Assembly: GCA_002414225.1 (NCBI GenBank)
Contig: DHYV01000040.1
Span: forward strand, 49,656 to 113,655
DNA length: 64,000 nt
Reading direction: 5' to 3'
Source of the DNA: Desulfobulbaceae bacterium UBA5121
GTDB taxonomy: Bacteria; Desulfobacterota; Desulfobulbia; Desulfobulbales; UBA5123
Under the pieces are notes generated by a model. It was not told the origin of the DNA. It searched no databases and worked only from the letters and a program-made list of their open reading frames with translations. Shown here piece by piece: positions 49,122-58,731 of this stretch (positions within the stretch are counted from its first letter, which is position 1; every line of letters begins with the position of its first letter). The translations under genes were made by a program, and so were the position numbers.

Positions 49122-49199
49122 TGGGGTGAGCGATGGGACTTGAACCCACGACCTCCGAGGCCACAACCCGGTGCTGCCACCAGCTGAGCTACGCTCACC
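49122..49199 (-). tRNA. tRNA-His (anticodon GTG) with encoded G-1 and CCA
   Basis: Reverse complement GGTGAGCGTAGCTCAGCTGGTGGCAGCACCGGGTTGTGGCCTCGGAGGTCGTGGGTTCAAGTCCCATCGCTCACCCCA. The anticodon stem CCGGG/CCTGG-type (with a G-U pair) encloses the loop TTGTGGC. T-arm GTGGGTTCAAGTCCCAT. The extra 5' G pairs with C73, a His identity feature. Confidence 0.9.
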
Positions 49200-53696: not shown

Positions 53697-54230
53697 TCAG
53701 CATCGGTGGTAGTCGGCGGGGCGGTCGGTGGCCGGGTACGGGGCCGCGGCGCGGGAGACGATGAAAGCGATGATCAGGATGCCCGGAATGTTGAGGATCA
53801 GCCTGCTCGCCATGAACCGCCATCCCATGGCGGACGCCTCGAAGAGCAGCATGGGGATTTTGATCGAGGACCAGGCGCCGATGAAGATAAGGATGTTGAA
53901 GGGGCTGCACCCCTTGGCGAGCAAGGTCGCCGCCACCGGAAAGGCGGCGTAGAGCGGCCCCGCCGAAAAGGCCCCCAGGCTGAGGGAGAGCATCGCGCCG
54001 GTTGTCCCGGACCGCTCCCCCAGCAAGCGAATGATCGTCTTCTTGGGCACCCAGACGTCGAAAAGGCCGAGGAGCAGGAAGATCGGCGGGATGATGGTGA
54101 CCATCTCAAGGAAGTTCTGCCACGAGACGGACATGGCCTTGGCGCCCATCTTGGGCTGCCAGAGGGACAGAACCACCTGGGCCAGGGCCAGGAGCAGGAA
54201 CAGTCTGTATCTGCGAACCACGCTGTTCAT
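53697..54230 (-). CDS. permease, second half of a split two-gene DUF318/ArsP-like permease
   Basis: 177 aa, polytopic. 4-nt overlap with the upstream half. Family recalled from the 'two-component membrane permease' naming. Confidence 0.55.
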   Translation of the reverse strand: MNSVVRRYRLFLLLALAQVVLSLWQPKMGAKAMSVSWQNFLEMVTIIPPIFLLLGLFDVWVPKKTIIRLLGERSGTTGAMLSLSLGAFSAGPLYAAFPVAATLLAKGCSPFNILIFIGAWSSIKIPMLLFEASAMGWRFMASRLILNIPGILIIAFIVSRAAAPYPATDRPADYHRC

Positions 54231-54703
54231 TGCAGGATGCCTCCCATGGCGAAGGCGACGCCGAAGGAGAAGAGAAAGGCCAGGCCGTTGCGGAGCAGTG
54301 ACGCCCTGACCCCGAAGTGCTCGATCTCAAGCGGCAGGGTCAGAACCCCCACCGCCATCAGGGTGCAGACGAAGACCGCGATCTGGACCACGCCGCCGCC
54401 GTGCCGGTAGAGAGCAGCGGCGAGGGGGAAGGCCACGAAGCCGGGAATCAGGGTAATGGCGCCCAGCAGAGCTGCGGCCAGGACGCCGAACCAGCCCGAC
54501 TGCCGGCCGAAGAGGAGGTCGATTTTCTCCGGGCTGATCAGGGCCAGGGTAAGGCCGATGACCAGCAGGATGACGAGGATCTGGGGCAGGATGCCGGCAA
54601 AGGCGTTCCATGCCTTGATGACGGATTTTTTGGTGTTTTCCCTGTCCTTGGCGTAGGAGACGGCCAGGAGCAGCAGGGCGAGACAATAGAGGGTGAGGGT
54701 CAT
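54227..54703 (-). CDS. permease, first half of a split two-gene DUF318/ArsP-like permease
   Basis: 158 aa, polytopic (MTLTLYCLALLLLAVSYAKD...). RBS aaggag. Confidence 0.55.
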   Translation of the reverse strand: MTLTLYCLALLLLAVSYAKDRENTKKSVIKAWNAFAGILPQILVILLVIGLTLALISPEKIDLLFGRQSGWFGVLAAALLGAITLIPGFVAFPLAAALYRHGGGVVQIAVFVCTLMAVGVLTLPLEIEHFGVRASLLRNGLAFLFSFGVAFAMGGILQ

Positions 54704-55097: not shown

Positions 55098-55904
55098 TCA
55101 GAACAGCTTGCCGTCCCGGCTGTGTTTGACGATGAGAGCGCGGAACATCTCCACCATCCCCTGACAGAGCAGATAGATGGCATCGACGCCGAGGTTGTCG
55201 GCGGCGGTTTCGTCGAAGAGCAGGTTCAATTTGGCGCCGAGGCCCGGCTCCGGCGCCCAGTAGTTGACCACCAGGGGCAGCCGGGGCAGGGGATGGAGAC
55301 GCAGCGAGCGGTCGGCCCCGGTGCCGGGAAGCGGCCGCGAACCGAAGAGGTCGAGGAGCTCGAAGAAGAGGTCGGGGTGGGCATTGGCCAGTTGCTGCAG
55401 TCCCGTTTCGCAGCGGTGGGCGAAGAAGCGGCTCCAGTCGCCGCCTTTGGGCAGTTGGGCAAAGGCGACCAGGCGGCCGGTGGGATGCCTTCCCTGGCCG
55501 TTGATGATGTAGTTCAGAAGCGGCACCTGGACCCAGAGGTTGCTGTGGCATTCGGAACGCAGCTCGCCGGTGGCGTTCACCACGAATTCCTTGCCCAGGC
55601 AGGGGATCGCCAGCCCTTCCGGCACGGTTCTGCCGCCCAGCCGCTCCGCCACGGAGGCGAAGTCAACGGCAGCAATGGCCTGCTTGAGGGCGTGCAGCCG
55701 TTCCTGCTGTTCCTCGGCAATGCTTTTGCGGACCACGACTTTGCCGCGCACCGCCTCGATGGCCCGGTCCGAAGCATGGGGACACTCTTCGATGGATTTT
55801 TGGCCTTGGATGACTGCCACTGCGAAGGCCATGCAGGAGGGCAGCAGACAGGCACGGCAGTTTGATTTGTCGAGCAGTCGATAGAGTTCCAAAGGGTTTT
55901 TCAT
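55098..55904 (-). CDS. RnfB-type Fe-S-cluster domain + DUF3786-like domain protein
   Basis: N-terminal LDKSNCRACLLPSCMAFAVAVIQGQKSIEECPH, a 4-Cys PF04060-like domain as in the RnfB N-terminus and CODH/ACS subunits. 268 aa. RBS gaggagag. Confidence 0.65.
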   Translation of the reverse strand: MKNPLELYRLLDKSNCRACLLPSCMAFAVAVIQGQKSIEECPHASDRAIEAVRGKVVVRKSIAEEQQERLHALKQAIAAVDFASVAERLGGRTVPEGLAIPCLGKEFVVNATGELRSECHSNLWVQVPLLNYIINGQGRHPTGRLVAFAQLPKGGDWSRFFAHRCETGLQQLANAHPDLFFELLDLFGSRPLPGTGADRSLRLHPLPRLPLVVNYWAPEPGLGAKLNLLFDETAADNLGVDAIYLLCQGMVEMFRALIVKHSRDGKLF

Positions 55905-56054
55905 GGCGAGCTCTCCTCATGGTGGTCGAAGGCGACAAGAGCTGGTGGCCGTTCCTTGCCGTGTCGCCCGCGGTTGGTGGACTCCGAGGAGAACAGAATT
56001 TCACCGCAAAGACATCAGCCGATCGGCTGATGTCGGCAATTTTCGGTAAAAAAA

Positions 56055-56897
56055 TCAGATAAGCCGGTGGCGGGCGGCCCAGACCGCTGCCTGTGCCCGG
56101 TCGTGGATCCCCAGTTTGTCGTAGACGTGGCTGACATGGGTCTTGACCGTATGGAGGCTGATGGCAAGGTGGCGGGAGATCTGGGGGTTGCTGGCGCCGT
56201 TGGCCAGGAGGACAAGGATTTCAAGCTCCCGACTGGTGAGCGCCGTTGCCGCGTCCGGCCGAGGCGCCGCCGGATGGCCGGCGGCGGGGGGAAGATGCAG
56301 CTCAAGGGTTGCGGTGCAGTTGCCGTCCCGGTCGAGAACCGGATAAACCGCCTTCTGCTCAACGGGGGCGGCAAGCCCGGGGCAGTCGCCGGGCGGTACC
56401 CCTCCCTGACTGAGGGCGGCGGCAAAGGCAAGACAGCTCGGTTGGCCGCATTGCCCACAGTTGGTGCGGGGCAGGATCCGGTAGATGGCCAGCGGTGTCG
56501 GGGCCGGCGATTGCCGGTACCTGGGGCGGATCTCGTGCCGGCGGGCATGCAGGTCGTTGCAGAAGGCAACCAGTCGTCGGCAAAAGTCCCGGACTCGGGC
56601 CTGATCGGCAAAGGATGCGGCGAGGATCTCCAGGGGATAGAGGGTACAGCGGGCCCCGTGGAAGTCGATCTGGATGCGTTCCGGGGTTTGCCAGTACCTG
56701 GCCCCGGCAACGCTGGCGTTGATGAACGGGAAGAGGGGCGAGAGGTCGCGGTCCACCTCGAACCTGATCCCGAGTTGGGCACCGGGCCAGGCAAAGGCCC
56801 CGGACCTTGTGATCTGCAGATTCCGGTAGCCGGAGAGAAACGCCTCGCCGCGCTCCGGTTGGGAACGTGGTTGTCTGAGCATGATCGTTTTGTACAA
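56055..56897 (-). CDS. LuxR-family transcriptional regulator with internal RnfB-type Fe-S-cluster domain
   Basis: Central LPRTNCGQCGQPSCLAFAAALSQGGVPPGDCPG (4 Cys). C-terminal HTH LTSRELEILVLLANGASNPQISRHLAISLHTVKTHVSHVYDKLG. The N-terminal ~140 aa are unassigned. Confidence 0.7.
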   Translation of the reverse strand: MYKTIMLRQPRSQPERGEAFLSGYRNLQITRSGAFAWPGAQLGIRFEVDRDLSPLFPFINASVAGARYWQTPERIQIDFHGARCTLYPLEILAASFADQARVRDFCRRLVAFCNDLHARRHEIRPRYRQSPAPTPLAIYRILPRTNCGQCGQPSCLAFAAALSQGGVPPGDCPGLAAPVEQKAVYPVLDRDGNCTATLELHLPPAAGHPAAPRPDAATALTSRELEILVLLANGASNPQISRHLAISLHTVKTHVSHVYDKLGIHDRAQAAVWAARHRLI

Positions 56898-57393
56898 TGA
56901 AACCGATTTTTCGACAAGAGGCGGCCGCCCGATCTTCTTTCCTTAAATTCGAGAAAAGCAGGAGATTCTCTGGCGGAGCCAACGGCGTAAAAAATGTTGT
57001 TGAGTACCAGCTGGGGCGGCAGCGGCACGCCATCAGGGGGATGCCCTCCCGCCCCGTCCGGGGCGGGAGGGGGGGCGGCACTGCCGTTCCGGCGCCCGGT
57101 TGACTGCGCCGCCACGCGGCCGAAGGTGCACGACCGCAGGATACATTAGGCCGCGGACTTTTTTCCCCCTTTCGATCACCGGTCGTCGCATCCCATCCGG
57201 CCACCCACGAACAGCTTCATGAGCGAAGATATTCGGAACCGCTCCTGTCTTTTCAGTGCAGCGTTGTTTTCCTGATGGTGGAGCTTGCTTTTTGATTTTG
57301 GCTGTGGGCAGAATGGGAACAAGTTGGGCGGTTTTGGTTTGTCAGGAAAGAGGGTTCACGTTCACGTACCATCAACGAAGGAGGAGGATTCCG

Positions 57394-58731
57394 ATGCAAC
57401 AGCGCAACAGGTTCAAGCAACTAGGCGTTTGGGCGGCCTTTCTCGTGGCGACCGCCGCCGTTCCGGGACTGGCGGTCGCCGACCCCTGTGAGTCTTGCCA
57501 CATGCAGAAAAATCCCGGACTCTTTCTCCAGTGGAAGAACTCCAAACACGCGGCAAACGGCGTCTCCTGTATCGACTGCCACCGCGCTGCGGCCACCGAT
57601 CCCGATGCCTTTTCCCATCACGGGGCCACCATCGCCACCCTGGTGACCCCCAAGGACTGCGGCCAGTGCCATGCCAAGGAGACCGAGCAGACCACCAACT
57701 CCTATCATGCCCATGCCGGAGAAATCCTTGAATCAGCGGATGCCTACCTGGCCCATGTGGCCGGCGGCGAGCCGGTGGCCATTGCCGGCTGCGCCGTCTG
57801 CCACGGCGCCAAGATCAAGATCGACCCCAAGTCTCCCAACCGCCTCGATCGCAAGACCTGGCCCAACTCGGGGATAGGCCGGATCAATCCGGACGGCTCC
57901 AAGGGCGCCTGCAACGCCTGCCACGTCCGCCATTCCTTTTCAGTGGCTCAAGCCCGGCAGCCGGAGAACTGCGGCAAATGCCATCTGGGCCCCGATCATC
58001 CGCAAAAGGAGATCTACGAGGAGTCCAAGCACGGCATCGCTTACTATGCCAATCGGGAGAAGATGAATCTGGACAAGAATTCCTGGGTTGTGGGGGTTGA
58101 CTACTACGAGGCGCCGACCTGCGCCACCTGCCATATGTCGGCCACCCCGGACCAGCCGGTCACCCATGATGTCGGCAACCGGATCTCCTGGACCTTGCGG
58201 CCACCCATCTCCAAGCACAAGGACGACTGGCAGCAGAAACGTAAAAACATGCAGGATGTCTGTCTCAACTGTCATCAGCAGCGATTCGTGGACGGCCACT
58301 ACTACCAGTACGACGCCATGGTGGAACTCTACAACGAAAAGTTCGGCAAGCCCGCCACCGAGATCATGAACATCATTAAGAAGAAGGGGTTGTTGGCCCG
58401 ACCGGCGGATTTTGCCAACAAGGTCGAGTGGGAGTACTGGGAACTCTGGCACCACGAGGGGCGGCGGGCCAGAATGGGCGCGGCGATGATCGGTCCGGAC
58501 TACACCTGGTGGCACGGGATCTACGACGTGGCCCAGAACTTCTACTTCAAGTTCCTGCCCGAGGCACGCCACTTCAACGATCCTGATGTGAACGCCTACA
58601 TCGACAATCTGCTGAAGAACAACCCCATGCATGACTGGGTGAACAAGCCGACCAAGGAACTCAAGGCGGCCATCCGCAGCGGTGAGCTGCAGAAGGTCTA
58701 CGACAAGTTGTTCGCGGCCGATAAGCAGTAG
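57394..58731 (+). CDS. octahaem c-type cytochrome, hydroxylamine-oxidoreductase (HAO) family-like, secreted
   Basis: Start at MQQRNRF after aggaggagga. Signal peptide ...VPGLAVA. Eight CxxCH motifs: CESCH, CIDCH, CGQCH, CAVCH, CNACH, CGKCH, CATCH, CLNCH. 445 aa. Confidence 0.8.
   Translation: MQQRNRFKQLGVWAAFLVATAAVPGLAVADPCESCHMQKNPGLFLQWKNSKHAANGVSCIDCHRAAATDPDAFSHHGATIATLVTPKDCGQCHAKETEQTTNSYHAHAGEILESADAYLAHVAGGEPVAIAGCAVCHGAKIKIDPKSPNRLDRKTWPNSGIGRINPDGSKGACNACHVRHSFSVAQARQPENCGKCHLGPDHPQKEIYEESKHGIAYYANREKMNLDKNSWVVGVDYYEAPTCATCHMSATPDQPVTHDVGNRISWTLRPPISKHKDDWQQKRKNMQDVCLNCHQQRFVDGHYYQYDAMVELYNEKFGKPATEIMNIIKKKGLLARPADFANKVEWEYWELWHHEGRRARMGAAMIGPDYTWWHGIYDVAQNFYFKFLPEARHFNDPDVNAYIDNLLKNNPMHDWVNKPTKELKAAIRSGELQKVYDKLFAADKQ

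Follow-up and report, generated by a model that had tools for sequence, protein, structure and literature searches.

A putative iron–sulfur LuxR-type regulator and its predicted operator beside a DUF3786 gene in a Desulfobulbaceae genome

Introduction

Iron–sulfur (Fe-S) transcription factors are central to the sensing of oxygen, nitric oxide (NO), redox state and iron in bacteria. The characterised Fe-S regulators belong nearly all to the FNR, Rrf2, SoxR and Wbl groups, and few of them come from strict anaerobes. A 64,000-nucleotide stretch of the genome of Desulfobulbaceae bacterium UBA5121 (contig DHYV01000040.1; this whole stretch is called the window below, and positions are counted from its first letter) encodes two adjacent proteins that carry the same type of four-cysteine module, one attached to a DUF3786 domain and the other to a LuxR-type helix-turn-helix (HTH) domain. 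What could the second protein, a putative regulator, sense, and which gene could it control? A first-pass annotation, made from the letters alone, took it for a one-component Fe-S sensor of redox state, NO or O2 and named the divergently transcribed gene of an octahaem cytochrome as an obvious candidate target. The comparative analysis presented here retains the sensor and points to another target. It is proposed, with moderate confidence, that the protein is a local Fe-S-based one-component regulator of the adjacent DUF3786 gene and acts through a palindrome situated between the two genes.

A conserved partner gene and a conserved palindrome

The full architecture of the regulator (an N-terminal domain, the Fe-S module and the LuxR-type HTH) is represented by about 64 clusters at 90% identity, and every named source belongs to the Thermodesulfobacteriota (Desulfobulbaceae, Electrothrix, NaphS2, Desulfosarcina and Desulfatibacillum). 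The genome scan with alignment A2 used HTH peptides, and true family members were present in 14 of its 80 loci (L001–L014). Synteny was evaluated in 22 independent regulator loci. One of them, L089, comes from the cultivable Desulfosarcina cetonica; the organism of the window is known solely from a metagenome-assembled genome. The immediate neighbour of the regulator is a DUF3786 gene, with or without an Fe-S module of its own, in 16 of them; such pairs are mostly co-directional and are divergent in five cases. A CGGC-domain gene (PF08821) directly follows the regulator in three further loci. The partner genes themselves occur in several combinations. Pairs of DUF3786 genes in tandem, of which only one has the Fe-S module, are found at L005:11022-12525 and L013:8186-9637, and at L096:422-2137 an FeS-DUF3786 gene is followed by a CGGC-domain gene, so that both alternative partner families are present in one locus. 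In L093, which encodes a 75%-identical relative of the window regulator, the upstream neighbour of the regulator is an EI24-family gene.

The spacer between the regulator and the DUF3786 gene of the window holds a perfect 24-bp palindrome, composed of the arms GACATCAGCCGA and TCGGCTGATGTC and centred 118 bp upstream of the DUF3786 ATG. Equivalent spacers of other loci contain related sequences, from which an 18-bp family-wide consensus, ATCNCCC-N4-GGGNGAT, can be derived. In 19 of the 22 family loci, divergent arrangements included, the partner gene has the palindrome upstream of it, with typically 65–130 bp between the palindrome centre and the partner start codon. The strict pattern was matched 15 times in 370 kb of family loci, once per locus, and all the matches except that of L003 stand beside the regulator. 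Among unrelated LuxR loci (940 kb), two matches were obtained; L018, which holds one of them, is in fact a true locus of a PAS-LuxR gene and a DUF3786 gene. A position weight matrix (PWM) trained without the window site ranked position 56011 first in the whole 64-kb window with 18.1 bits; the runner-up scored 11.7 bits, and the maximum on random windows was 11.1 +/- 2.6 bits. Metagenome contigs were also scanned with the motif only. Most of the matches were due to chance and 6–7 of 80 were informative; they include three further sites located 60–230 bp upstream of FeS-DUF3786 genes, one of which is directly followed by a CGGC gene.

The window site departs from the consensus symmetrically, at positions 5 and 14 (ATCAGCC...GGCTGAT), while the site of the 75%-identical relative (L093:2010-2027) is changed in one arm alone (ATCACCC...GGCTGAT). 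The two sequences look as if the half-sites had drifted one after the other. At L112:1240, L118:172 and L156:5708, palindromes that are nearly the same (ATCACCCATATGGGTGAT and ATCCCCCAAATGGGGGAT) directly adjoin the 3' ends of LuxR-HTH genes, with no DUF3786 gene nearby; the genes of L118 and L156 look like REC-LuxR response regulators. Either a wider subfamily of HTH domains may recognise the motif, or the motif may also serve as a terminator.

Domain structure of the two proteins

Both open reading frames lie on the minus strand where the first-pass annotation had put them, at 55098-55904 (268 amino acids) and at 56055-56897 (280 amino acids from a TTG start at 56897). Public gene calls start the regulator at the ATG at 56882, which shortens it by five residues to 275. 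The proposed domains were found by profile searches, namely PF04060 in both proteins, PF12654 in the DUF3786 protein and PF00196 in the regulator. In the regulator, PF04060 spans residues 142–173 (E 2.5e-13; score 49.9 bits, cut-off 23) and the GerE domain PF00196 spans residues 219–274 (E 1.3e-18, 66.8 bits against a threshold of 23.5). The modelled HTH superposes on the C-terminal domains of VraR and LiaR with target TM scores of 0.92–0.95 and root-mean-square deviations (rmsd) of 0.6–0.9 A in Foldseek, and the VraR, LiaR and NarL domains all match at a target TM of about 0.9 with rmsd below 1.2 A. No receiver domain (PF00072) was detected by Pfam. The NCBIfam response-regulator models cover residues ~210–280 only and score far under their cut-offs, in agreement with the earlier view of a LuxR HTH without a receiver. 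The Pfam families of the CRP/FNR, Rrf2, MerR/SoxR and WhiB regulators gave no match to the protein at E<=0.01. The Fe-S module is joined to the HTH by a conserved hairpin linker that is restricted to the LuxR-fused family; its strands were modelled by AlphaFold2 at residues 181–188 and 194–202. The confidence (pLDDT) of the models is 85 for the full-length regulator and 90 for the part that comprises the N-terminal domain and the Fe-S module. This HTH-free part was modelled separately, since the fold search with the full-length model was dominated by HTH matches.

The partner protein carries PF04060 at residues 11–43 (E 9.9e-13, 48 bits against a cut-off of 23), followed by PF12654 at residues 81–253 (E 6e-40, 137 bits against 27), which is matched over its full profile (positions 1–176 of 176). 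DUF3786 is a family of more than 1,100 clusters, all unnamed. Structure and literature searches found neither a solved DUF3786 structure nor a study of the family, and nothing functional was found in the literature on DUF3786, PF04060, CGGC or DUF3795.

The four-cysteine module

The peptides that the first-pass annotation had quoted for the two modules are exact, and its common pattern fits both proteins, which share 15 of 32 residues. When the whole window was translated in all six frames, only these two genes contained the motif NC..C....C.AF(13)C. The four cysteines are invariant in 30 members of the regulator family and in 63 module sequences (alignments A1, A2 and A4). The relationship of the two modules is clear from a profile–profile comparison with hhalign (probability 99.5%, E 2.8e-23). 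The modules are thus homologous, but they do not stem from a recent local duplication; they form separate lineages that co-occur across many genomes.

The label "RnfB-type" needs a similar revision. Membership in PF04060 is right, but RnfB is not the closest relative. When the regulator family profile was compared with the Protein Data Bank (PDB), the best match was the N-terminal [4Fe-4S] domain of the CoFeSP large subunit (4djd_C, E 1.8e-12), as against 2e-4 to 1e-3 for RnfB chains; the DUF3786 family profile also matched CoFeSP (E 6e-11). The modelled module of the regulator superposes on 4djd_C with an rmsd of 0.7 A over 40 columns (Foldseek). The two proteins reach 27.4 and 22.6 bits with the RnfB/RsxB model TIGR01944, whose cut-off is 68.7, and rnfB models align in both of them to a 35–60-residue four-cysteine region only. 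By profile comparison, the nearest relative of the module is the CoFeSP N-terminal [4Fe-4S] domain and not RnfB. By homology with the solved CoFeSP structures, the four cysteines should hold a [4Fe-4S] cluster. PF04060 has appeared in a list of sensory domains for clostridial sigma-54 activators, but it was not studied there (PMC6615313).

The N-terminal domain and its stand-alone relatives

The N-terminal part of the regulator had been described as unassigned. This is correct with respect to Pfam, which gave no match over residues 1–135 even at E<=10; the domain is not unique to the regulator, since it is part of a large stand-alone family. The domain was modelled with pLDDT above 90 and has the topology beta-beta-alpha-beta4-alpha. 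Its best solved matches in Foldseek are single TBP repeats (1ais_A and 1mp9_A; ~80 columns, rmsd 2.0–2.5 A, with weak E values of 0.05–0.1), and other members of the TBP-like fold class are also among the matches. According to the model, the fold is probably TBP-like. The possibility that the domain is a diverged DUF3786 was ruled out (hhalign probability 0.2%).

A profile search with the HTH left out revealed that the N-terminal domain and the Fe-S module together form a widespread stand-alone protein of 175–190 amino acids, to the full length of which residues 6–200 of the regulator align. Its hosts include Thermodesulfobacteria, Armatimonadota, Chloroflexota, Clostridia and others, and an exhaustive search collected 279 representatives of this unit at E<=1e-30. 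In the alignment, P52, N55, P120 and the four cysteines are invariant (numbering of alignment A4, whose residue 1 is Met6 of the 280-residue frame). Members of the stand-alone family are named "(Fe-S)-binding protein" by NCBI and "ArsR family metal-binding transcriptional regulator" by JGI. The same unit is fused to a MarR winged helix in P0278 (313 amino acids) and to a class-V (NifS/IscS-like) cysteine desulfurase in P0307 (582 amino acids). The window regulator is still most plausibly read as an Fe-S-based one-component sensor, and the presence of the same module on a MarR DNA-binding domain strengthens this reading. The module proteins P0267, P0268, P0270 and P0276 possess an N-terminal extension of ~95 amino acids, for which Pfam gave no match.

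Two genomic settings of the stand-alone proteins can be mentioned here. At L091:3086-9478, two of them, each of 187 amino acids, lie within an ars-type operon together with genes for an ArsR HTH protein, an SBF/Acr3 transporter, a SAM methyltransferase, an ArsP_1 permease, thioredoxins and DsbD, and a B12-binding radical SAM gene adjoins. This context may be the source of the "ArsR family metal-binding" label. At L090:7001-10693, a stand-alone module protein is encoded directly upstream of a pterin-binding/CdhD-like gene and a gene for RACo, the reductive activator of CoFeSP, which represents a corrinoid/Wood–Ljungdahl setting.

Versions of the regulator with a PAS sensor

Outside the family, the HTH is most closely related to that of PAS-LuxR proteins, which are 225–240 amino acids long and 55–68% identical in this domain. 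They contain three invariant cysteines in the arrangement C-x10-C-x3-CP. In three loci (L018:9542-11335, L215:5001-6615 and L216:491-2105), a PAS-LuxR gene is followed by the palindrome, or by a variant with one mismatch, and then by an FeS-DUF3786 gene. The sensor appears to be interchangeable, because the HTH, the palindrome and the DUF3786 target recur with the three-cysteine PAS sensor. The conserved core, as far as sequence comparison indicates, is the HTH, the predicted operator and DUF3786; the sensor varies, yet it is always cysteine-rich. A more tentative generalisation, which is possible rather than probable, is that the window is one case of a widespread circuit of strict anaerobes, in which one LuxR-type HTH subfamily and one operator control DUF3786 or CGGC cysteine-rich proteins, and the sensor (TBP-like plus CoFeSP-type, or three-cysteine PAS) can be exchanged.

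Stress-related genes recur in the neighbourhood of these regulators. The pair in L215 adjoins a cluster of flavodiiron protein, rubredoxin, desulfoferrodoxin, rubrerythrin and Fur genes. At L084:5656-7545, the regulator is divergent from a 629-amino-acid Prismane-family gene, which is in the size class of hybrid-cluster protein or carbon monoxide dehydrogenase; two AhpC/TSA fragments, an ArsP_2 permease gene and a CbiA/ParA ATPase gene come after it. The HAO-type cytochrome gene of the window is a further neighbour of this kind. The coordinates of all features described for the window are collected in Table 1.

Table 1. Features of the window considered in this work (dot, no strand assigned).
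Feature	Position	Strand	Remarks
Regulator coding sequence	56055..56882	-	275 amino acids from ATG; N-terminal domain, CoFeSP-type 4-Cys module and LuxR/GerE HTH
N-terminal alpha/beta domain, ~residues 24-130 (280-residue numbering)	56508..56828	-	predicted TBP-like; conserved DLSPLFPYINA motif
PF04060 4-Cys module of regulator	56370..56495	-	C147, C150, C155, C172; C-x2-C-x4-C-x16-C
Beta-hairpin linker between Fe-S module and HTH	56292..56357	-	conserved (KAVYPVxDxxGNLxSTVxL); alignment A1, AlphaFold2
LuxR/GerE-type HTH, DNA-binding domain	56070..56252	-	PF00196; Foldseek
Perfect 24-bp palindrome	56011..56034	.	predicted operator; core 56014-56031
FeS-DUF3786 protein, 268 amino acids	55098..55904	-	Pfam; conserved partner, predicted regulated gene
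PF04060 4-Cys module of DUF3786 protein	55776..55874	-	C16, C19, C24, C41; same spacing as in regulator
Octahaem HAO-family cytochrome c	57394..58731	+	divergent neighbour; 8 CxxCH motifs; PF13447, 101.6 bits
Two overlapping half-size ArsP_1-type permease genes	53697..54703 (54227-54703, 53697-54230)	-	Pfam; downstream of DUF3786
tRNA-His (GTG)	49122-49198	-	sole RNA gene detected in window

Proposed mechanism

The mechanism that is favoured here can be outlined as follows. The sensor would consist of the small alpha/beta N-terminal domain, probably TBP-like, and the CoFeSP-type four-cysteine domain with a [4Fe-4S] cluster. On the output side, comparative genomics suggests that a dimer of the LuxR/GerE HTH binds ATCNCCC-N4-GGGNGAT at 56011-56034 and, from this position between the two genes, would control transcription of the FeS-DUF3786 gene. 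The signal would be a change of the cluster, which may be present or lost, oxidised or reduced, or nitrosylated, and which would alter either DNA binding or the activation of transcription. The expression of DUF3786 would then track the cellular redox state, oxidative or nitrosative stress, or Fe-S status. The same cluster-binding domain is also part of the DUF3786 protein.

Several observations weigh against this mechanism. Clusters of the CoFeSP type are electron-transfer clusters and are not known as sensors, and the TBP-like assignment of the N-terminal domain is weak. A convincing sigma-70 promoter was not found for the DUF3786 gene of the window. At three loci of the family (L002, L003 and L088) there is neither a partner gene nor a palindrome nearby. 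Co-directional loci hold the palindrome just past the stop codon of the regulator, often with a T-run next to it, and it could also act as a terminator. Finally, the motif positions other than 4/15 are nearly invariant, and covariation therefore cannot distinguish a DNA site from an RNA hairpin.

Alternative explanations

The Fe-S module could report the supply of Fe-S clusters or electrons rather than an oxidant. The regulator would either receive a cluster or electrons from the DUF3786 protein or exchange them with it, or it would gauge the capacity for assembly of this cluster type, and the pair would constitute a feedback loop for an Fe-S or cofactor-handling function. In CoFeSP, electrons enter through the cluster of the homologous domain, which is in line with this explanation, as are the positions of stand-alone modules, which in L090 adjoin a pterin-binding methyltransferase gene and RACo and in L091 lie between genes for thioredoxin and DsbD. 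The idea is kept alive because P0307 combines the module with a class-V cysteine desulfurase and because the predicted target has the same module as the regulator. It nevertheless appears unlikely. The partners in L006 and L010 are DUF3786 proteins without the Fe-S module, CGGC genes take the place of DUF3786 at some loci, and versions of the regulator with a PAS sensor exist.

The model of the first-pass annotation, in which a sensor of NO, O2 or N-oxides acts chiefly on the divergent cytochrome gene, is quite unlikely. The gene itself was correctly identified as that of an octahaem HAO-family cytochrome. Besides its eight CxxCH motifs and the PF13447 domain, the protein matches the octahaem protein 4qo5 (E 4e-45) and HAO (1fgj, E 4e-22) in the PDB; it falls short of the hydrazine dehydrogenase equivalog model, with 72 bits against a cut-off of 900. 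Its divergent orientation across a 511-bp spacer would suit a regulated gene, its family handles nitrite, hydroxylamine and NO, and the stress-related genes near regulator relatives in other genomes point in the same direction. A left half-site, ATCCCCC, is also present on the minus strand of the spacer near 57029-57035. However, a cytochrome homologue was not found in loci L001–L014 (tblastn, E<=1e-5) or in the gene lists of six further family loci, L093 included. Among the loci compared, this neighbour is unique to the genome of the window, and conservation beside the regulator is limited to DUF3786 and CGGC genes. Between the regulator and the cytochrome gene, no position scores above -0.4 bits with the PWM, compared with 18.1 bits at the site on the DUF3786 side. 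Partner conservation and operator conservation alike indicate the DUF3786 gene; the cytochrome gene is unsupported as a target, and the synteny together with the PWM scan rules it out as a conserved one. It may be an extra target specific to this genome, although nothing supports this.

The same spacer contains a perfect G+C-rich inverted repeat at 57044-57071, CCCTCCCGCCCCG-TC-CGGGGCGGGAGGG, which is unique in the window, with 0 expected by chance. The lone consensus half-site lies just beside it.

It is very unlikely that the palindrome is only an intrinsic terminator or another structural DNA or RNA element and that the adjacency of the genes merely reflects the shared ancestry of the pair, with no direct regulation. 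In co-directional loci the palindrome does lie ~30–100 bp from the regulator stop codon, frequently with a T-run, its right arm in L013 can join a canonical hairpin with a T-tract, and it also abuts the 3' ends of some REC-LuxR genes. Against this, five loci (L008, L010, L011, L013 and L089) hold the palindrome between divergently transcribed genes, and it is therefore not merely a terminator. What is preserved across regulators that are only 35–55% identical is the sequence and not pairing alone. In 11 of 21 sites, the two bases at motif position 4/15 are not complementary, which indicates that RNA pairing is not what the arms are selected for. The window copy is followed by only three T residues, and the terminator scan called none on the coding strand. 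A known RNA element was also ruled out, both at the palindrome and at the G+C-rich hairpin, since no Rfam family matched either of them at the gathering threshold or at E<=1.

Least likely of all, the N-terminal TBP-like domain would bind a small ligand (a metal or metalloid, an organoarsenical or a corrinoid) and would be the real sensor, with the four-cysteine domain being structural; the JGI label, the two stand-alone copies in the ars-type operon of L091 (ArsR, Acr3, methyltransferase and ArsP_1 permease), the ArsP-type permeases near the regulator in the window and in L084, and a conserved motif of the domain's own (D51, P57, N60) would agree with this, but the permease association is not kept among LuxR-fused members, the four cysteines are the most strictly conserved residues of the module, and the PAS alternative keeps three invariant cysteines, which points to a cysteine- or cluster-based signal.

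Other features of the window

The two ArsP_1-type genes downstream of the DUF3786 gene encode proteins of 158 and 177 amino acids and overlap by 4 bp; together they look like a split permease. They are separated from the DUF3786 gene by 394 bp and are preceded by a promoter-like site of their own, with an extended -10 element, at 55068-55041. Their co-regulation with DUF3786 is uncertain. The split permease was ruled out as a conserved partner because it stands beside no other LuxR-fused member; elsewhere, ArsP genes occur near the stand-alone modules of L091 and in L084.

Significance and comparison with known systems

One-component regulation by Fe-S proteins is already known. What is new in the present case is the sensor module, its pairing with LuxR and MarR domains and the DUF3786 target. 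A full-text literature search found no paper that characterises a regulator with this sensor module and none that studies DUF3786 as a family, in agreement with the first-pass annotation, which knew of no characterised regulator with this architecture. The analysis adds a candidate sensor module that is based on a CoFeSP-type [4Fe-4S] domain and occurs joined to two or more kinds of DNA-binding domain. It also gives a concrete predicted regulon, an 18-bp operator and one adjacent gene, and a first functional handle on the large DUF3786 family. If the wider circuit of strict anaerobes outlined above exists, a new response to Fe-S stress or low-potential redox stress would have DUF3786 as its effector, and the CoFeSP-type cluster domain would be an unrecognised class of transcriptional sensor, also present on MarR and possibly on sigma-54 regulators.

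Among known proteins, the large subunit of CoFeSP (AcsC/CdhE; 4djd, 2ycl and 4c1n) shares PF04060 and the C-x2-C-x4-C-x16-C spacing with the modules of the window. The CoFeSP domain is part of an enzyme, in which it supplies electrons to a corrinoid, whereas in the window the modules are joined to a DNA-binding domain or to DUF3786, without a TIM barrel or a corrinoid-binding domain. RnfB/RsxB likewise begins with a PF04060 domain, but the proteins of the window have neither its membrane anchor nor its ferredoxin-type Fer4 repeats.

The DNA-binding side resembles the C-terminal domains of NarL, FixJ, VraR and LiaR, which are 43–52% identical to the HTH of the regulator (rmsd 0.6–1.1 A). A G/C-cored inverted-repeat operator is typical of this NarL/FixJ-type LuxR class. 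These proteins are controlled by a phosphorylated receiver, which the window regulator does not have. FNR, the Rrf2 proteins (NsrR/IscR/RsrR), SoxR and the WhiB-like proteins would share the proposed principle, in which the state of a cysteine-ligated cluster controls a dimeric HTH at a palindrome; there is no sequence relationship, and both the cluster domain and the DNA-binding domain are different.

The closest characterised functional counterpart is OrpR of Desulfovibrio vulgaris, a local sigma-54 activator with a redox-sensing [4Fe-4S] cluster (PMC8359166). OrpR is likewise a one-component local regulator from the same phylum, it uses an Fe-S sensor, and its very small regulon consists of adjacent operons (PMC8359166), which provides a precedent for a local [4Fe-4S] redox regulator. 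The cluster of OrpR resides in a PAS domain, which is combined with an AAA+ sigma-54 module and a Fis-type HTH, in contrast to the TBP-like domain, the CoFeSP-type domain and the LuxR HTH of the window regulator. The PAS-LuxR relatives (L018, P0076) are architecturally nearer to the sensor of OrpR.

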